Positions 51,872-63,493 of a stretch of DNA of 64,000 bases are shown here, in pieces. The position numbers were made by a program, and so were the translations under genes. The DNA is from Lewinellaceae bacterium (GTDB lineage: Bacteria > Bacteroidota > Bacteroidia > Chitinophagales > Saprospiraceae), in assembly GCA_020636375.1 (NCBI GenBank), contig JACJXZ010000011.1, positions 258,115-322,114 on the forward strand, given 5' to 3'. Position 1 is the stretch's first letter. Each line of letters opens with the position of its first letter. The notes beneath the pieces were generated by a model. The model did not search any database and was not told the origin of the DNA. It saw only the letters and a program-made list of their open reading frames with translations.

Positions 51872-52860
51872 CCGCGAACTTTAAGCATTGTATCTGCCAA
51901 GACCGCATAGCGGTGCTGTCAGATACAATGCAGTTGAACAGCCTGTCCCGGCGCCATGCCGGGAAAGCCGCATGTATTTGCCGCCCTTATGGGCATTGTA
52001 TCGGCCTATCCAGGGGCTCTCTTCCGGCTCTTCAGCCGCCCGTTTTTCTCTGCCGGGCCCCCTGTAAGCCCCTCCGGCCAGCAACCGCAGCCTAAAATAG
52101 CCGTTTCTTCATTCTTTTTCAAGCCAATTGGCTGCATAGGGGCACAAAAATATTGCCTCAGGCCTGGCCGGCAGGTGCCTGAGCCGCAGCCAATTGGGTG
52201 TCCATCGGTTTGGCCATAAGGCAACAAGGCGGCGCCCGGCCGGTATCCAGATAACTGTTACCATGCGGCCCTTGCCGCACACCGGGCACACTTCCCAATC
52301 AATACCCGTGGCCTGCCGATAGCGCTCCCGCCAGGAAAGAACCGGAAGCTGAGTTGGCGGCGTCATCCCCAAAGCCCGCCGGCAAAGGGCTAAAGCCTGC
52401 CTTCGCAACCTGTTGGACAGGATGCCGTAATACCGGATCTTGCAAAATCTTGCCGGCAGGATGTGCTGCAAAAACCGCCGGATAAACTCCTCATGCTCCA
52501 TGCGCATCACCTTCTGCTTGTTGCCATCGGCATAATCCCGCCAGCGGAAGCAAACAGTATCCTTGTCCACGGACACAATACGGTGGTTGCCGACCTGCCT
52601 GCCAGGCCGCCAAGGCTTGCCTGGCGGGCAGGTGGCTACCCGGTGGGTATAGCGCCCAAGGTAGGCCAGCAATTGCTCCGGCCCGGCAAAGGGCAGCTTG
52701 GCATATACCACCCAATCTTCGGCCATAAGCGCATTGAGCAGTTTGCCAAAGGCCTGCTTGTTACGCAAATGGCCACACAAACCGTCCAGGCGAAGCCGGT
52801 CTGCTTTATAGTACCTGCGCAAAGCGCTGACAAACTTGCCCCTGAACATGGCCGACAAGG
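51872..52860 (-). mobile_element. IS91 family element, copy 1. The transposase is N-terminally truncated, and the element has a ~240 bp hairpin-containing terminal region.
   Basis: 51872-52108 is ~90 percent identical to 57413-57662, including the hairpin 'gcattgtatctg...cagatacaatgc'. ORF 52109-52860 has the IS91 Y2-transposase C-terminal motifs 'YLGRYTHRVA', 'CFRWRDYADGNKQKVM' and 'YYGILSN'. It also has an extra in-frame 42 bp palindromic insertion relative to copy 2. Confidence 0.65.
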
Positions 52861-52959
52861 CCTGTACCGGTACGAGGAACTCCGTAAGCGTCCGGTGAAG
52901 CCCATCTTGCATTAGCAAAAAAGCCTTCTGACCTTTAGGCTGGATCAAACCGAAAAAAG

Positions 52960-53342
52960 ATGAAGCAAAAGACATCGGAAGCGATGCGGCCGATAGTAGA
53001 GGCGTATGCCCACTACCCAGGCAGCAAGAAAGCTTTTTGCGCAGAGGAAAAAGAAGGCCCTTGCGTCGTTATTGCCGAGCAGCCTTCCCGGTTTATTGAC
53101 AAATGTATAGCCGATGAATCGCTGCTGCGAGTCATTATTGCCGATAAATACCTGGACCACCTGCCGCTGTACCGCATAGGGGCCCGTTTTGAGCGCCTGG
53201 GCATGGTTATCCCGCGCTCAACCATGTGTGGGTGGGTAGGGCAGTCAGCCGGCCGCCTAACCATTTTACACCAGAAGCTTATCGAACTGGTTTTAGCAGC
53301 GGCCTACCTGCAGGTAGACGGCCTGCCCCGTACACGCAGTGT
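52960..53342 (+). pseudogene. IS66 family transposase fragment (N-terminal part).
   Basis: 'IIADKYLDHLPLYRIGARFERLGMVIPRSTMCGWVG' matches the IS66 'DHLPLYRQ' region. Confidence 0.6.
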
Positions 53343-55387
53343 CAGGGAATTTTCAGGCATAATTTATTATAGTTTCACTTAAAAACGAAATCTACTTTGA
53401 AATTGCATAACCAAGGGACTCTGGGGTCGATGCCGCTGCGGGCTAAGCGTTGAGGCAAACGGGTATAATGCTGGTGGAGCCCCAATTTTTCAGGCACGCC
53501 ATAAAAAGTAATGACAATGGTGTCGTCCTTGACTTTGAGGCTGCCATCGAAATCCAGGAAGACGCTTTTGGCCAAGTGTTGAGCCGTCCATTGGCTGAAA
53601 GGCTGAGGCAGCAATTGCTTGAGCTCGAAACAGGCGGCTTGGGCTAACAGGGCAGCCGTTTGTTTAGCCAGGCGGACATTGAGGTTCATAGTAGCGGCGC
53701 GGTTCCATCCATGTGGTACCTTTCTTCAAAATTAAAGAAGTCCTCAATAGCCCAGCGTTTGGGGTAGTGTTGGCTGACTTGCAAGAAAGCCTCTTGGCTG
53801 GAAGTGGAAACAAAAGGTTTATAGGAAAACTTGGTCAACCCGGTTCTTTGAACGATAAGCTGAAAGGTTTGCTCATGGCCCTTGAATTGAAAAGGGGCGC
53901 TGGCCAGGGCATAGCCAGGCCAATGTTGTTTGAACTCCATGGCCGGGTAAAGCTGTCGGACGTGCTTGGCGTTAGGGGCAGGCACTATAATGTCGAAGCT
54001 GGGGTGCTCCAGGATAGTGCTTAGCAACTCTACGGTATAATGTTCCGTATCGGCCAAGAGCAAAGCCGAAGGCAGGCCAATTTGCTCTAAAAAAGAAAGC
54101 AGCTGAGTGCTTGCCCTGGTACAGGAACGCCCCGGCGAAGCAATGCCGAAGCCAAAAGGCTGCCCGGACAAGGCATCGTTGCAAAAGAAGGTTTGCATCA
54201 TTTTAGCGGCTTTTTCCCTGGGCATTTTCTTCTTGCGCGGCATGATGCGGCCAGACTGGGTGACGATGCGGTGGGGGTCCAGGGCCAGGATGTTTGCTTC
54301 GTTGTAATGGCCTAATTGTTTCCTGCGCTGGGCCAGGGCCAATTGCAAAGCCTGGGATTGTTCGATGTTTTGGCCATAGGACAGCTCATGGATTTGCTTG
54401 TCGGTTGGCAGGAAAGAAAGCCCGTTGGCGAGGGCAAAGCCTTGGTTGCACAGGGTATTCTTGGCTCTGATGCGGTTGGTGCAAATAGCCGCTTCATGAA
54501 CCATCTGCAAGGCCATGCGGCAAGCCAGGCTATCTCCTGTCCCCAAGTATTGCTGCAGCATGGGCCAGGCGCCTAGCTTTAAATGGAAGGGAAGCAGGAG
54601 CATCAAGCCCAGGTGAGTGCCGGAAACGCGCTGGGCCAACTGCTGGCGCAAACGCCGCTCGTTAGACGAGGGGCTTATTTTTAGCCTGGCTTTGCGGCGC
54701 TTGCTTACCTGTTGCTCCACTACTGTTTGGCCTGGTTGAGGCGGCGGGTGCTTAAACAATTTTTTTTTCCAGCCCGTATTCGGCTAAAATGCGCCGTACG
54801 CTGCTGCGGCTGATTTTATGGCCCTCTTGGCGAAGCTTTTGAGCGATCGCCTCAGTGCTTTGGGCCGGATCTAAAAACTTGTAGCGGATGACAAGGTTCT
54901 TCACTGGCTCGGTGCGCACTGGCTTCGTTTTAGGGCCAGGTTTTTTGTTAACCAAAGCCTGGGAGCCTTCGGCCTTAAAGGCCTTGAGCAATTGGTGGTA
55001 GCGCTGCTCGGAATAGCCGTATCTTTGTGCGGCTTCCTTCGTACTTGCCAGGCGCCTTCGGCGAGCATGAGCAATTTTTGCCCGCTAAGTCGTCTTCGCG
55101 AAGGTTTAAAGTTTTAGCAAAGGGAGCTGTCAGGCAAATGGGAGGCAGGAGCATAAGCAATAGGGTTGGAAAACTAATCGAATATGAACATATATAAAAT
55201 ATACATACTTAAACGCCAAACACCAAAATTGGCTAACTATTTGGCAATGAGGATTTGATGAAAAACAGCAATAATGTGAACGAAACACATATGTTCAAAA
55301 TAAATTATTGTGCCGCTGTGCCGTAAATTTACGGATAATGGATGTAATTTGAAAAGGCTAAAACAAATTATGCCTGAAAATTCCCTG
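53343..55387 (-). mobile_element. IS4/IS5-superfamily insertion sequence with perfect 21 bp terminal IRs. Its transposase is frameshifted across ORFs 54752-54991, 53686-54759 and 53375-53689. The IS splits the IS66 gene.
   Basis: The IR 'CAGGGAATTTTCAGGCATAAT' is inverted at both ends. The tnp has an N-terminal HTH fragment and a C-terminal 'YPKRWAIEDFFNFE' (DDE_Tnp_1 E-motif). Each end abuts a copy of the ~22 bp 'cccgtacacgMagtgtcRggg' palindrome. Confidence 0.6.
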
Positions 55388-55397
55388 TACACGAAGT

Positions 55398-55580
55398 GTC
55401 GGGAAAGGGGCGCAAACCGCCGCCATCTTTTACAGCTTCTTCGCCTGCTGCAAACTCAACGGCGTCGATCCCGTCGAATGGCTGGAGGACGTCATGGCCC
55501 GGTTGCCGGATCACCCGGTCAACCGAATTGAGGAACTTCTGCCGCATCTTTGGAAAAAAGCTGAGGATTGCAAGATGTAG
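55398..55580 (+). pseudogene. IS66 family transposase fragment (C-terminal tail).
   Basis: 'AAIFYSFFACCKLNGVDPVEWLEDVMARLPDHP' matches the conserved IS66 C-terminus. Confidence 0.55.
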
Positions 55581-55946: not shown

Positions 55947-57347
55947 TTAGCTAGTAACATCTAACCTCTTCTCTAAAATTTTCTCCCTTTGCCAATCAAT
56001 AATTGTTTTTTCCAAGGACTCCGTTATTTGTGTGAACGGTCTATCTTTATTTTCCCAATCAGTCGAGGTTACTGGTTTTCCATCTTTAGGCAATGCCTGT
56101 AAATAACTGAAATGTGTTTTTTGCCAAAGACATTCCCTAATAATTATTGGAATCACTTTCACTTTTTCATCATCATGAAGTTTTAATGCTGTCTTCATTT
56201 CAGTCTCATAACAATATTCTGATGCTATGAAATCTGTACTTATTAGCAACAAGATAATGTCTGCTTTTTTTAGAGCATTTTTTATTTGTTCATCCCAATT
56301 TTTTCCAGCTTCTATCAAACCATCGTACCAAATATTGTTTATAAGTTTGGCAATTTGAAGAACTTTTAAGTTTTTAATCAAAGTAATACAAATATCTTCA
56401 TCATTTCGAGAATAAGCAATAAAGAAATTTAAAGGTTCTCTCAATGAATTTACATAGTTTTCAATTTTCTCTTGGAGTGAAAATGCATCCTTGTGATTTC
56501 TTTCCTTCAAAATTAAACTGACTATATCTAAAGCCAGCTTTAAATTGCCTTTAGAGAATTCCCTTTTAGCTTGTTCTAGTTTTTCAATTATGTTACATTC
56601 TTCAATACAAATATCAATTTTCTGTTGAATAAACTCTCTATGAGCTTCTGAAGTTTTGCTTAAATTTTCCTTAGCTTTTTCAAAGTTACTCAAGGAAATT
56701 TCCCAAAGTTTTTCACTATAAGCTCTCATTCCTTGGCTCAAATATTTGTTGAATTGCACAAATTTATCTCTTTCATCAAGATGTTTTTGTAATTGTTTTT
56801 CAATACTAGCATCCTTTTTTATTTCGCTCGCTTTTATAAGGCATTCTATTGCTTCATTTAAAAAACCTCTCTTATAAGAATCCTTTGCAATTTCTTTAAA
56901 TTCAACAAGCTGAGCCTCTATATCGTATTCAAGTGAAACAATTAAATCTCCAGTTTCATCAGTTTCGAATTCATAATTACCTAATCCTTCTTTGACTATT
57001 TCTTCTCCTATCTCAGAACCAAAAGGAATTCTAATCACATATGGACGATTTTCATAGTAAAAACCCCTTCCATCGCAAGGATAGCAGAATAGATTAATCT
57101 TCTTCACCCCCTTACATCGAGAACATTTCTCAAGACTACGCCTTTCCCCAAAAAGAATATTTTTTCGAGTTTTGTATATTGTTCCTTGACCATAACACTC
57201 CGGACAAGAAATAACCCTTTTTCCATTTCCTTGGCATTCTTTGCACTTAATTACCCTTGATAATTCAACTCTTATTTCAAATCCTCGATAGGCATTTTTT
57301 TCAGTCGTATTAATCGTTAGATAATTATTCTTTTTTTGAATACTCAT
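55947..57347 (-). CDS. TIR-domain protein with an N-terminal DnaJ-type (CxxCxGxG)x4 zinc finger and a central helical region. Candidate standalone anti-phage/NADase effector in an AT-rich island.
   Basis: 466 aa. N-terminal 'CKECQGNG..CPECYGQG...CSRCKGVK...CYPCDGRG'. C-terminal TIR features 'NFFIAYSRNDEDI...IWYDGLIEAGKNWDEQI...ADIILLLISTDFIASEYCYETE...KVIPIIIREC'. Gene GC is about 33 percent against about 60 percent for the window. It sits directly between IS66/IS91 remnants. Confidence 0.7.
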   Translation of the reverse strand: MSIQKKNNYLTINTTEKNAYRGFEIRVELSRVIKCKECQGNGKRVISCPECYGQGTIYKTRKNILFGERRSLEKCSRCKGVKKINLFCYPCDGRGFYYENRPYVIRIPFGSEIGEEIVKEGLGNYEFETDETGDLIVSLEYDIEAQLVEFKEIAKDSYKRGFLNEAIECLIKASEIKKDASIEKQLQKHLDERDKFVQFNKYLSQGMRAYSEKLWEISLSNFEKAKENLSKTSEAHREFIQQKIDICIEECNIIEKLEQAKREFSKGNLKLALDIVSLILKERNHKDAFSLQEKIENYVNSLREPLNFFIAYSRNDEDICITLIKNLKVLQIAKLINNIWYDGLIEAGKNWDEQIKNALKKADIILLLISTDFIASEYCYETEMKTALKLHDDEKVKVIPIIIRECLWQKTHFSYLQALPKDGKPVTSTDWENKDRPFTQITESLEKTIIDWQREKILEKRLDVTS

Positions 57348-57412: not shown

Positions 57413-58957
57413 TGCCGCTAACTTTAAGCATTGTATCTGCCGGGACCGCGCAGCGGTGCTGTCAGATACAATGCAGTTGGACGGAACCGCCAAACGCAGC
57501 TGCCTCTATGGGCATTGTATCGGCCTATCCAGGGGCTCTCTTACGGCTCTTTAGCCATCCGTTTTTCTCTGCCGGCCCCCTGTAAGCCCCTCCGGCCGGC
57601 AACCGCAGCCTAAAATAGCCGTTTCTTCCTTCTTTTTCAAGCCAAACATCCGCTTCAAGGCATAAAAATACAGCCTCAGGGCTGAACTGTAGCTGCCTGA
57701 GCCGCAGGCAATGGGGTGGACAACCCTTTAGCCATGAGGCAACAAGGCGGCCCCCGGCCAGCCGGTATCCAGAGAACCGTCAACATGCGGCCCTTGCCGC
57801 ACACCGGGCACACTTCCCAATCAATGCCGGCGGCCTGCCGGTAGCGCTCCCGCCAGGACAGAACCGGAAGCTGGGGCGGCGGTTTTACCCCTAAAGCTTG
57901 CCGGCAAAGTGTCAATGCCCGGCGGCGCAGCCGGTTGGATAAAATACCGTAGTAGCGGATCTTGCAGAACCGGGTGCCGGCAGTACATGCTGTAAAACCG
58001 CCGGATAAACTCCTCATGCTCCAGGCACATCACTTTCTGCTTATTGCCATCGGCGTAATCCCGCCAGCGGAAGCAAACCGTATCCTTGTCCATGGACACA
58101 ATGCGGTGGTTGCTTACCGCCACCCGGTGGGTATAGCGCCCAAGGTAGGTCAGCAATTGCTCCGGCCCGGCAAAGGGCGGCTTGGCATAGGCTACCCATT
58201 CTTGAGCCATCAGCTTGTTTAATAAGCCGTCAAAAGCCTGCTTGCTGCGCAAACGGCCGCACAGCCCTGCCAGGCGAAGCCGGCCAGCTCGGTAGTGCCG
58301 GCGCAAAGCGCTGACAAACTTTCCCTTGAACAGGGCCGACAGAGCCTGCACCGGCACAAAGAACTCCTCGCGGGCTGATACCCATTTGCCGCCCCTCAAG
58401 CCTCCACCAGGAACTATGCAGTGGAGGTGAGGGTGGTAATGCAGGTTCTGACCCCAACTATGCAAGATGGCTGCCATGCCCGGCCGGGCGCCCAGGTAAT
58501 GCCTGTCGGCACACAGCTTCGACAAGGCCGCCCACGCTTCTTGGAATAAGGTTCCATACAACAGCCGTTCATTGTAGCGCACTAAATCGTGAACCTCTGC
58601 CGGAAGCGTAAAAACGATAACCTGTCCCGTACACAAAGTGTCGGGATGAAAATATCCCACTGGCAAAAGCTCTGCTTGCCGCGCTTCCAGCCAGGCTTCC
58701 CGAGCCAGGCTCTGGCATTTAGGACAATGGCGGTTGCGGCAGCTATTATAACTGATGCGAATGTGCCCGCATTCATCGCATGCGTCGATAACTTGTCCCG
58801 TACACGCAGTGTCGGGATGGCCGCCCAATGCCGCCGTACGGCATTGCTCTATAGCTCGCATGGCCTTATGCTGGGCTTTGCTCAGCTTATGCTTTGAACG
58901 GTAAGCTGTGCCGCCGGCTCGAAAAACATCGGCTACCTCATATTTAGGCCGGGCCAT
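57413..58957 (-). mobile_element. IS91 family element, copy 2: a terminal hairpin region plus a Y2/HUH transposase gene. The gene is frameshifted near 57960-58017 and carries two in-frame 30-33 bp palindrome insertions.
   Basis: 'HPHLHCIVPGGGL', 'CRNRHCPKCQ', 'YLGRYTHRVA'. The C-terminus continues in ORF 57676-58017 in another frame. The insertions at 58618-58647 and 58790-58819 split 'GGH|..|DACDECGH' and the HUH motif 'YFH|..|VFTLP'. Confidence 0.7.
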
Positions 58958-59240: not shown

Positions 59241-59994
59241 TTTCGAGCAGGCCCTGCTCCATCACCAGCTTGCCCAGCCGTTTGAGGTTGTAGGACAGCA
59301 CTCCCAAAGCGACATATTTCTTGAACCCGTCCAGGCCTTTATCCGGCACCCGGTTGGCGCCGCTATGCTCCAATTCATTGATATTTGATTCTACAGCGCT
59401 GTGTTTTTTGCGCAATGCCACGAACGTTTTGGCGCTTTCTTCAGCTTCCTGTTGCGGCGTTTTTTTCCCTTTTTTGGGCATCACTACGTGCTCAAAGTCC
59501 TCTTGCAAGGCCTTCTTGGCCAAAAAAAAAAAAAAACCTCTGTCAAAACTAATACTATTCAGCGCATAACCTTCGCTGAAGCGCTCCTTGACACGCTTGG
59601 CCAGCGCAATAGGCTGGGCTTTGTCTCCCTGCCCCACCAATACTTCATGGTCAACAATGAATTGAAATTGGTCCGTTGTTATCAGGGTATTGTGGCCCAG
59701 CTCCACTTTCTTATTATGTTTCCCTTTTTGTATCCACTCCACATGAGGCTCAAAAATAGAAAACACTTTTTCTTCATGAGGGATTATTTCTCCTTTAATA
59801 ATACGGCGCTCTACCAAACCGATATGCTTTTCCAGCATCTCATGGTAATAGGATAAAGCTTTTAATAATGCGCCAAGCTGAATATCTGCCAGCGCTAAGG
59901 GCAACAATTCCTTATAGCTTTGCTCTACGCGCTGGCTCAATTCCCGGCTGCGCTGCAAATATTTTTCAGCCGCTTTTTTCAACCGCTCCTTATA
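59173..59994 (-). pseudogene. C-terminal half of an IS1182/IS5-like DDE transposase gene that is interrupted by the IS4-like element at 59995-61635.
   Basis: '...SAVESNINELEHSGANRVPDKGLDGFKKYVALGVLSYNLKRLGKL'. Reading through the 8 bp TSD joins it in frame to ORF 61623-62408 ('...KGKGYKERLKKAAEKYLQ'). Confidence 0.5.
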
Positions 59995-62635: not shown

Positions 62636-62718
62636 CTCTCGCTTTACCAGTTAAGGCTTTTGGAGGACAAAAGCTACCGCCGGAACGGCGGTTTAGTTCA
62701 ACGGTGAAGCTACCTGCC

Positions 62719-63420
62719 GTGCGACACTTAGGAGTATGGCCAGGTAGCTAATGTGTGTGCCCGGCATGGGCATCCGGTCCCTGTAAAGATAGGGAATAAA
62801 ACTAGAGGGTGAAAATCCCTTACAGGCAAGTTGCCGAAGCCTGTTAGCAAGCCGCAAGGGCGCTCGGAGTGATCCGGGGTCTGAAGGAAGCGGGACTGCA
62901 AAAGCTGGTACCGACGAACAGGAATCGCATAAGAGGCTGGATTAGGAGCGTAAGGCAGCATCCCGTCAGGCGTGACGGGATCAAAGCGCGTAGGCAGCCA
63001 TCCTAATTGAGTAGATGCGGCGGCGATCAGCGGAAAGCGGATGTCCTTACCCGGGGAGATCTCCACGAGGATTCATTCCTGGAATGGAGAAGTCAGCCGA
63101 AGCCATAGTAGCGGAGCCAAACCGTGTTCTAATGACTAGCCATCCCGACACTTTGTGTACGGGACAAGTTGTTGCTGGCAGCGGAGCGTGAGAGGGTAGC
63201 CGTGAAGGGCTGAACGTCGAACAGCGGACGATCCGCGAAACATGGAACTTGTCTATCATGGGTGACCGATTCCCTACGGCAAACCATCCGTTTCGATGGA
63301 AAAGATGCAAGGTGCAACTGGTGAAAAGAGCGGTTGTACTGTTTGACGAACCGCCGTATACGTGACCCGTACGTACGGTGGTGTGAGGGCTCTGGAACAG
63401 TGACGGACACCTTTGCCCAT
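62719..63420 (+). ncRNA. Candidate ORF-less group II intron (class C-like) or related structured RNA, about 700 nt.
   Basis: It begins GUGCG at 62719. Near the 3' end (63351-63384) there is a domain-V-like hairpin 'CCGCCGUAUACG-UGACC-CGU[AC]GUACGGUGG', with the lower stem CCGUAU/GUACGG and the 2 nt AC bulge identical to the canonical DV. A triad-position 'CGC' and a GAAAGCGG-type motif lie upstream. No IEP ORF is present. The region also contains a copy of the 30 bp palindrome (63141-63170). Confidence 0.3.
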
Positions 63421-63493
63421 TGGGTAGGTTTAAATGTCAGTCGCTGTTCCTTGCCACTCGATTGGCGGCATCCTCATATCTTGATATTCCTTT

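Follow-up and report, generated by a model that had tools for sequence, protein, structure and literature searches.

A very small hairpin repeat of Bacteroidota, inserted twice into an IS91 transposase gene and targeted by an IS4-like element

The 64,000-nucleotide stretch of DNA analysed here, referred to as the window, derives from contig JACJXZ010000011.1 of a Lewinellaceae bacterium (assembly GCA_020636375.1, positions 258,115–322,114) and carries two IS91-family transposase genes, an IS4-like insertion sequence (IS), an IS66-family remnant and a group II intron without an open reading frame (ORF). A hairpin of 26–27 nt recurs among these elements. A first-pass annotation of the window had described it as a 30-bp imperfect palindrome lying twice in frame within one IS91 transposase, and had proposed three origins for it: a miniature palindromic mobile element, footprints of an excised element, or hairpin targets of a retroelement. 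The results given below favour the first of these, and we place at roughly 0.65 the probability that the motif belongs to a family of very small mobile hairpin repeats, resembling repetitive extragenic palindromes (REPs) or small dispersed repeats (SDRs), in Bacteroidota and the Fibrobacteres–Chlorobi–Bacteroidetes (FCB) superphylum. The hairpin copies of the window and the elements that host them are as follows.

58790–58816, minus strand: hairpin insertion 1 in IS91 copy 2; 27 nt, CCCGACACTGCGTGTACGGGACAAGTT, encoding PDTACTGQV between GGH and IDACDEC
58619–58645, minus strand: hairpin insertion 2 in IS91 copy 2; 27 nt, CCCGACACTTTGTGTACGGGACAGGTT, encoding PDTLCTGQV between YFH and IVFTLP
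57676–58957, minus strand: IS91-family transposase gene copy 2, host of both insertions, with a frame broken near its 3' end
63144–63170, plus strand: hairpin copy in the group II intron, an unoccupied target site of the IS4-like element
62721–63410, plus strand: ORF-less group II intron with this third hairpin copy (Rfam D1D4-3, 106.8 bits, D1D4-1 and DV-DVI; 5' GTGCG and 3' end read by eye)
53344–55386, minus strand: IS4-like DDE insertion sequence with HTH_32 and DDE_Tnp_1, ends AGGGAATTTTCAGGCATAATTT, inserted in a hairpin
53320–53343, minus strand: 3' part of the split hairpin, GACACTGCGTGTACGGGGCAGGCC; 53330–53343 is one copy of a 14-bp duplication, GTACACGCAGTGTC
55387–55407, minus strand: 5' part of the split hairpin, TTTCCCGACACTTCGTGTAC; 55387–55400 is the second copy of the duplication, GTACACGAAGTGTC, identical at 13 of 14 positions

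The pattern CATCCCGACACTNNGTGTACGGGACARGTT has three matches in the window where none is expected by chance. Matches to AACYTGTCCCGTACACRMAGTGTCGGGATG lie at 58619–58648 (plus strand), 58790–58819 (plus) and 63141–63170 (minus), and none occurs in 100 dinucleotide-preserving shuffles of the window, which rules out a chance palindrome. All three places named in the first-pass annotation are thus real, the first of them being displaced by one base (58619, not 58618). Read in the sense orientation, the motif is CAT-CCCGACAC-TNN-GTGTACGGGAC-ARGTT. A search with the 20-nt core, in which up to three mismatches were allowed, recovers two extra copies with one mismatch each (53327–53346 and 55384–55403); both directly abut the inverted repeats of the IS4-like element and correspond to the versions of about 22 bp that had been noticed at its outer ends.

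The gene that hosts the two in-frame copies belongs to the IS91 family: its ORF (57821–58957, minus strand) carries the Pfam domains Zn_Tnp_IS91 and Y2_Tnp, and the HUH and YxxxY motifs are all present. The encoded protein was aligned with 13 homologues of 57–93% identity, drawn from the thousands of IS91-family proteins returned by a protein search. In this alignment each segment appears as a gap of exactly nine residues (GGH/PDTACTGQV/IDAC and YFH/PDTLCTGQV/IVFTLP; here and in the sites below a slash marks a junction), and both segments are missing from 12 of the 13 homologues. The thirteenth (P0001 on contig L109, 90% identical over the aligned part) contains insertion 2 and lacks insertion 1, and P0002 (contig L110) has neither. 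When the window is aligned with L109 and L110 at the DNA level, the gaps are clean, 27 nt long and without target duplication at either site; empty sites read CAC/ATA, CAC/CTT and CAC/GTT, and filled ones CAT[27 nt]ATC or ATA. Since P0002 has neither segment and P0001 only the second, the segments are insertions gained one after the other, at site 2 first and at site 1 later. The first-pass annotation, which had proposed this alignment and named orthologues natively containing the segments as the observation that would count against it, was correct that both are true in-frame insertions; their length is nine codons (27 nt) and not the 10–11 that it gave.

Among the 120 best IS91 homologues, P0001 alone contains a peptide from any of the hairpin's six frames. 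Between the two lineages insertion 2 shows two changes in its tail and none in its 22-nt core, having diverged along with the host gene, which fits a carrier IS91 that has kept propagating. Folding prediction puts site 2 in a loop of 15 nt with a probability of being unpaired of about 0.9. Neither insertion interrupts the motif that it had been thought to split. Insertion 1 precedes the first CxxC by three residues, outside the zinc ligands. The YFH before insertion 2 marks the C-terminal edge of the Zn_Tnp_IS91 domain, in its last conserved block (profile positions up to 85–90) and within a conserved YFHxVFTLP. The HUH motif, which we take to be the invariant HPHLH at residues 175–179, lies inside Y2_Tnp some 70 residues further on.

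All six frames of the canonical unit, read directly, are free of stop codons. Because a stop-free unit of 27 nt preserves the frame, and because only frame-preserving insertions ride along in a transposase that is still spreading, the in-frame state is best read as survivorship of such events and not as function; nothing suggests a function for the inserted nine-residue peptide. The terminal hairpins of the IS91 elements (22-bp stem; 51885–51931 and 57428–57474), considered as a source of the small hairpin, are unrelated to it in sequence. The IS91-like element itself comprises a tyrosine-recombinase gene, the Y2 transposase gene and this terminal hairpin, and in L110 (1440–1600) the opposite end, which contains GTTC, abuts the 22-bp-stem hairpin, an arrangement resembling that of a tandem copy or a circle junction.

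The anatomy of the unit was derived from 115 instances. The conserved span runs from −2 to +26 relative to the core, with flat composition beyond, and the consensus is (A 59%)(T 82%)-CCCGACAC-T(90%)N C(74%)-GTGTACGGGAC-A G G T(66%) T(70%), a T standing immediately 5' of the unit in 82% of instances. The unit proper, of 26–27 nt, can be written CCCGACAC-TNC-GTGT(A)CGGGA-CAGGT(T). When single-stranded it forms a stem of 9 bp closed by a triloop, in which the 3' arm has one bulged A and is followed by an unpaired 3' tail of 5–6 nt. All versions share this fold: (T)CCCG pairs with CGGG(A) in the lower stem, the 3' arm has a bulged A or G, four further base pairs make up the upper stem, and a triloop and an unpaired CAGGT tail complete the structure. 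Four upper stems are found, ACAC with GTGT, ACAT with ATGT (seven copies in two bins), ACCC with GGGT and ACCT with AGGT; all of these combinations pair, and the variation is compensatory.

The distribution of the hairpin was assessed in one scan of 185,579 species-representative genomes with the query CCCGACACNNNGTGTACGGGAC (19 specified bases), for which about four chance matches were estimated. The core is present at at least 108 loci in at least 35 assemblies, almost all of them Bacteroidota/FCB; the motif is therefore not restricted to the copies of the window, the outcome that had been named as telling against a mobile element. Carriers among the matches listed include Saprospiraceae and Lewinellaceae metagenome-assembled genomes (MAGs), Flavilitoribacter nigricans, many Bacteroidales MAGs, Niastella and Rikenellaceae, as well as three Marinimicrobia/Fidelibacterota assemblies, and three hairpin-rich freshwater bins account for 23, 17 and 15 loci among those same matches. 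Two actinobacterial matches look like chance. Two of the three rich bins encode type IX secretion sorting domains; the window likewise encodes a type IX sorting-domain protein, and the nearest relatives of its IS91 are Lewinellaceae and Saprospiraceae copies, which together identify it as Bacteroidota DNA. A phage origin was rejected, no copy being present in 2.9 million viral contigs, and so was a plasmid origin, PLSDB having returned only two partial matches at chance level. A literature search by the hairpin sequence string returned nothing relevant.

Most copies are intergenic. Called ORFs of 120 residues or more contain only 5 of the 115, and most of these ORFs are of low complexity; the genes that flank intergenic copies are convergent in 22 cases and divergent in 7. 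At gene 3' ends the orientation is nearly balanced (42 sense, 37 antisense). In the three rich bins the hairpin occurs within tandem arrays of 7–9-mers, (TGGTCAT)n, (TACGAAT)n and (TGAGTTAAT/TGGTTGAT)n, where it sometimes recurs every 35–45 nt, and in a Bacteroidales subset (L052, L083, L086) it forms inverted doublets about 27 nt apart. A gene situated between inverted copies in L087 was considered as a candidate and proved to be an ordinary flavodoxin-like reductase.

The hairpin also nests within its own loop. Locus L082 consists of (CCCGACACT)x4 followed by (GTGTGTACGGGACAGGT)x4, and single nestings are found in L016, L031 and L043. With each nesting the sequence grows by exactly 26 nt, placed after the loop T, compared with the 27 nt of both IS91 insertions, and the resulting arrays are composed of 9-nt 5' halves and 17-nt 3' halves. 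In some loci the halves are unequal in number (7 five-prime and 11 three-prime in L061, 1 and 3 in L108, and also L051), and slippage must act on these half-arrays as well.

Placement in the apical loop of a larger stem-loop is frequent, the hairpin's own loop included. In Lewinellaceae HK-STAS-BACT-26 the hairpin forms the apex of a miniature inverted-repeat transposable element (MITE) of about 200 bp with terminal repeats AGTGCTTGTTTGGAGG (L014, L038, L063, L068, L072, L078). The intron copy of the window (63144–63170) lies in an 85-nt expansion of a terminal loop that measures 13 nt in the Rfam model; in a related intron (L074) the hairpin is about 120 nt further upstream, and in L053 it stands antisense at the apex of a domain-V-like stem. 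Degenerate intron copies at L053 6330–6420 and L074 330–400 have the domain V apex replaced by the hairpin and by TCCCGAAAGTTTTCGGGA, respectively.

This peripheral-loop position does not fit the proposal that the hairpin serves as a group II intron target, since the intron carries the hairpin as an insertion and itself begins 26 nt downstream of a different, terminator-like hairpin, ACCGCCGGAACGGCGGTTTAGTTCAAC (region 62641–63462); a role as homing site was rejected on both counts. The arrangement beside ACCGCCGGAACGGCGGTTTAGTTCAAC resembles the homing of class C introns next to stem-loops. A third IS91-like fragment ends in the ACCGCCGGAACGGCGGTTTAGTTCAAC hairpin, and positions 62641–62704 are 94–95% identical to L110 and L111.

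The IS4-like element contains HTH_32 and DDE_Tnp_1 fragments in the window, whereas its intact relatives have ORFs of 135 and 446 residues. A metagenome scan with an exact 20-mer of the IS terminus yielded one true further copy (L115, 88% identical), and look-ups of the proteins P0121, P0122 and P0127 added eight more contigs; the close relatives compared were L115/L121, L122, L123, L124, L125, L126 and the window. All recovered flanks, from seven further contigs (six with both ends, one with one end) and from both sides of the window element, consist of the hairpin cut at the same position, in the form …AACCTGYCCCGYACNC-nnn-GKGTC/AGGGAATTTT or …TCCCGACNC-nnn-GKGTAC/AGGGAATTTT. Beyond the hairpin the copies have different surroundings (IS66 remnant, intron, MITE and others). 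In L126 the B-end flank is the intron sequence of the window up to …gactagccatcccgacactttgtgtac/AGGG, with the IS placed after GTGTAC; because the same intron flank is occupied there, 63144–63170 represents the unoccupied form of the site.

Within the window the two flanks share GTACACG[C/A]AGTGTC (53330–53343 and 55387–55400), a 14-bp duplication of the hairpin centre that is identical at 13 of 14 positions, and when the IS and one repeat are removed a single consensus-like hairpin is restored. The 14-bp length is that seen in the window; flanks in short-read contigs are often mismatched, which we attribute to assembly through a 2-kb repeat. The IS4-like element inserts specifically into a pre-existing hairpin, and the versions of about 22 bp at its ends are the hairpin split by the IS, being neither footprints nor IS termini. 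All recovered copies of the element thus occupy one position of one palindromic family, as is characteristic of REP-targeting elements. The idea, raised by L115, that the hairpin halves are part of the IS termini was discarded in view of the differing outer flanks of the further contigs and the intact site.

Several further observations concern this element. The IS4-like copy of L126 is inserted in a copy of the MITE of about 200 bp. A transposase relative of 61% identity (P0127, L127/L128) abuts a different small palindrome, TTCCCGATAGCTATC/AGGG, a hint that CCCG…CGGG hairpins are the target of the entire IS subgroup. Positions 1–190 of L115 (equivalent to L121) contain three unrelated REP-like hairpins, CTGGTCGACGTTnnAAACrTCGACCAGCGG, beside the IS4-like element, and these represent another family of small palindromes from that community.

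Two other elements of the window, an IS66-family remnant and the first IS91 copy, carry small palindromes as well.

52960–53319, plus strand: N-terminal part of an IS66-family transposase remnant, joined in frame to 55401–55578 through the hairpin
52595–52633, minus strand: unrelated 39-nt palindromic insertion in IS91 copy 1, in frame after the catalytic YLGRYTHRVA

Once the IS is removed, the IS66 remnant (52960–53343 and 55401–55578) reads …AAAYLQVD-GLPRTRSVG-KGAQTAAIFYSFFACCKLNGVD… to a stop, or in another rendering YLQVD-GLPRTRSVG-KGAQTAAIFYS. Pfam finds positions 1–74 of the 284 of DDE_Tnp_IS66 directly before the IS66 C-terminal element, so that about 210 profile positions are missing with the hairpin at the junction. 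One possibility is that the deletion arose by recombination between two hairpin insertions. Fragments of IS66 of about 70% similarity in L115, L121 and L124 have a variant hairpin at the same place; the L111 IS66 protein, tried as a reference for the remnant, gave no match, being too distant.

The different palindrome that had been reported within IS91 copy 1 (52109–52975, minus strand) is present at 52593–52633; compared with copy 2 and the homologues, it lengthens the gene by a net 39 nt (13 codons) without changing the frame. Its termini, ACCTG…CAGGT, resemble the tail of the small hairpin and its length is likewise a multiple of three. No second copy of this 39–42-nt palindrome was found in any sequence searched.

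Taken together, the exact absence of the segments from 12 of 13 IS91 homologues and the recurrence of the same unit across at least 35 assemblies support the miniature palindromic mobile element of the first-pass annotation. If so, the hairpin is a new family of a rare, already described and poorly understood kind of very small mobile DNA. Its features point to structure-specific, single-strand cutting and joining in trans: the bulged hairpin, whose structure we count as being under selection, together with the conserved loop T and 3' tail; the lack of target duplication; the T found 5' of the unit, at its 3' end and at the nested target; the preference for stem-loop apices (IS91 site 2 lies in a loop, site 1 being ambiguous); and hosts that pass through single-stranded stages, such as the rolling-circle IS91 and intron cDNA. 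In such a scheme the unit would move as single-stranded DNA. A trans-acting structure-specific nuclease or transferase would recognize the bulged hairpin and cut after the T at its 5' foot and after the T of its 3' tail. The excised piece would then be joined 3' of an exposed T in a single-stranded target, which might be a hairpin loop or a replication or rolling-circle intermediate.

To our knowledge, HUH Y1 enzymes are the only class with such properties, and for this reason a Y1 enzyme of the type found in IS200/IS605 elements and in REP-associated tyrosine transposases (RAYTs) is the best available guess for the mobilizing activity, albeit a tentative one that we rate well below even odds. 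Searches were made with IS608 TnpA (PDB 2A6M) and Escherichia coli TnpA-REP (PDB 4ER8), both confirmed to be identical to the PDB entries, and with a profile derived from four Y1 transposases of solved structure.

Several findings weigh against this interpretation. The search for a cognate IS200/IS605 TnpA or REP-associated transposase that the first-pass annotation had called for retrieved no Y1- or RAYT-like ORF in about 0.74 Mb around the 115 copies or in the window, and no protein family is enriched near the copies. The motifs GTAG and CGTC and their complements are absent from the 29-nt consensus. Since there is neither a Y1 gene near the copies nor such a tag, membership among the RAYT-type REPs, including the suggested REPIN/RAYT link, is not established. 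In addition, the inserted length varies (27 nt in IS91, 26 nt when nested), which is not obvious for a precise transposase; the unequal half-arrays of L061, L108 and L051 need secondary slippage or another process; and folding prediction does not place IS91 site 1 clearly within a loop.

A further reading retains mobility and changes the agent. In it the hairpin would be moved by a factor outside the RAYT/IS200 group, either a host replication or repair activity or an unrecognized trans-acting hairpin transferase, acting on single-stranded DNA or on RNA and conserved across the FCB superphylum. We regard this as possible, though with the odds clearly against it. If it were true, the hairpin and the cyanobacterial SDRs would form a class of their own comprising the smallest known mobile DNA, parasitized in turn by an IS whose only landing site is the hairpin.

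It is unlikely, in our judgement, that the hairpin has no dedicated mobility and owes its spread instead to replication slippage or template switching from one existing copy to another, to microhomology-based gene conversion and to hitch-hiking in IS91, MITEs and introns. Such processes fit the inserted length of 26 or 27 nt and the unequal arrays of 9-nt and 17-nt halves better than a precise transposase does; the two IS91 insertions share the flanks CAT…ATCG, and insertion 2 has travelled with IS91 into another metagenome. However, the boundaries of the unit are the same in unrelated contexts, insertion has occurred into unique sequence with at most 1–3 nt of homology to the donor, the four-fold nesting at one loop position is symmetric, and the near identity of the sequence across orders and phyla implies a conserved recognizing factor.

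Spread through RNA is quite unlikely. Here a small RNA, or a cDNA made by the reverse transcriptase of a group II intron or another such enzyme, would be inserted into nucleic-acid loops; a route through an RNA intermediate was reportedly proposed for the cyanobacterial SDR elements by Elhai et al. (2008). Three of the roughly 113 hairpin loci do lie inside group II introns, in stem apices; the hairpin is sense-oriented in IS91 and in the intron, and G·T exceeds A·C among the variant pairs (9 versus 5, not significant). Nevertheless, IS91 and the MITEs are DNA elements without a reverse-transcription step, the intron of the window is ORF-less and the part of the window that was surveyed showed no reverse transcriptase gene, the hairpin copy in IS66 runs antisense to the gene, and orientation relative to neighbouring genes is, as noted, nearly balanced.

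That solo hairpins are footprints left by the excised IS4-like element, or by another element whose ends carry hairpin halves, is very improbable. Hairpin halves do flank all recovered IS4-like ends, but the outer flanks differ among copies, and the intron hairpin that is intact in the window is occupied in L126, which implies that the IS targets a pre-existing hairpin. The IS moreover duplicates 14 bp of the hairpin, a duplication that no solo copy shows, and its exact terminal 20-mer occurs in one true further copy in the metagenome collection, compared with a hairpin present in at least 35 assemblies.

There remains a negligible chance that the segments are native, functional parts of an IS91 protein lineage or mark group II intron homing sites: both are in frame and encode nearly the same peptide, and insertion 2 is kept in a second lineage, but 119 of 120 homologues lack them, most other occurrences of this DNA are intergenic, the unit is stop-free in six frames and so tolerated in any frame in which it lands, and no intron adjoins the IS91 copies. 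The alignment of 13 homologues and the motif scan of 120 rule out a native peptide.

Elsewhere between 52 and 62 kb several transposase ORFs are split (the IS4-like one into three pieces, IS91 copy 2 near its 3' end), and a run of 15 A occupies 59516–59530 inside a DDE_Tnp_1-like ORF; P0121 is 100% identical to a 357-residue fragment of the split IS4-like transposase. These breaks may reflect recent decay or homopolymer errors of long-read assembly. Between the mobile elements, an island of 39% GC holds a gene (55947–57347, minus strand) whose 466-residue product combines a DnaJ-type CXXCXGXG zinc module with a TIR_2 domain, and which is a candidate for a role in defence.

The interest of a mobile hairpin family lies in the material that it offers. 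How hairpin repeats of 20–30 nt move is a question that cyanobacterial SDRs and untagged REP-like repeats pose alike. Here, exact empty and filled sites in a conserved gene fix the extent of what was inserted (27 nt, placed after a T and without duplication), and ordered nested arrays pin the insertion point in the loop; with the compensatory stem variants and the hairpin-landing IS, this makes for unusually clean material. The near-identical core in several Bacteroidota orders and in Marinimicrobia implies a conserved recognizing factor, which is open to phylogenetic profiling. At the level of genes, hairpin inserts add nine residues to annotated proteins and may seed internal deletions.

Among known systems, REPs and their composites, the bacterial interspersed mosaic elements and REPINs, are short imperfect palindromes, mainly extragenic, that are associated with RAYT (TnpA-REP) transposases (PMC3116915, PMC3733652; PDB 4ER8), and two REP superfamilies carry a GTAG or CGTC tag (PMC3733652). 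The present hairpin resembles them as a multicopy, mainly extragenic imperfect palindrome of 20–40 nt with a bulge, enriched between convergent genes, occasionally intragenic and targeted by insertion sequences. It differs in lacking the conserved unpaired tag, in that no RAYT gene was found beside any copy in the 0.74 Mb around the 115 copies, in occurring as single units in IS91, in the intron and in nested insertions, with inverted doublets confined to L052, L083 and L086, and in inserting into itself, which is not a REP feature. Rickettsia palindromic elements are likewise inserted in frame into genes (PMC3733652), and they share with the hairpin the tolerance of palindromic repeats inside ORFs, but they measure 100–150 bp as opposed to 27 nt, and the copies described here are mostly intergenic. 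The hairpin is no MITE in itself, being a single unit without terminal inverted repeats matching an IS and without target duplication. The peel-and-paste transposition of IS200/IS605 (PDB 2A6M, 2VJV, 2XM3) is comparable in its manner of working only, in that a bulged sub-terminal hairpin is recognized, the target is not duplicated and insertion takes place 3' of a short single-stranded motif; the present unit has one hairpin instead of two ends, no transposase gene and a target of about one base (T).

For the IS4-like element, the nearest parallels are IS1397, whose targets are E. coli REPs, and ISKpn1, which the reference list of PMC3116915 presents as ISs targeting REPs (PMC94167; Tobes & Pareja, PMC1525189). 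The likeness consists in reportedly near-exclusive insertion into one small palindromic repeat family at a fixed position. The element described here has a transposase of the DDE_Tnp_1 (IS4/IS5) type, a separate HTH_32 ORF and an apparent 14-bp duplication, whereas IS1397 is a member of the IS3 family and duplicates 3–4 bp.

A close match in features is with the cyanobacterial SDRs. In Nostoc punctiforme and its relatives, Elhai et al. (2008) reportedly distinguished SDR1–8, with units of 21–27 nt, a conserved hairpin and compensatory changes. These repeats are also said to be embedded in tandem heptamers and minitransposons and to be nested in themselves, with no associated gene. As the SDRs are described, the present hairpin agrees with them almost point for point, in the size of the unit, the conserved hairpin with compensatory changes, the self-nesting, the embedding in tandem heptamers and minitransposons and, in the surroundings searched, the lack of an associated gene. 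The differences lie in the hosts, Nostocales in the one case and Bacteroidota/FCB in the other, and in what the present family adds: clean empty and filled sites in a protein-coding gene, and an insertion sequence dedicated to the hairpin.

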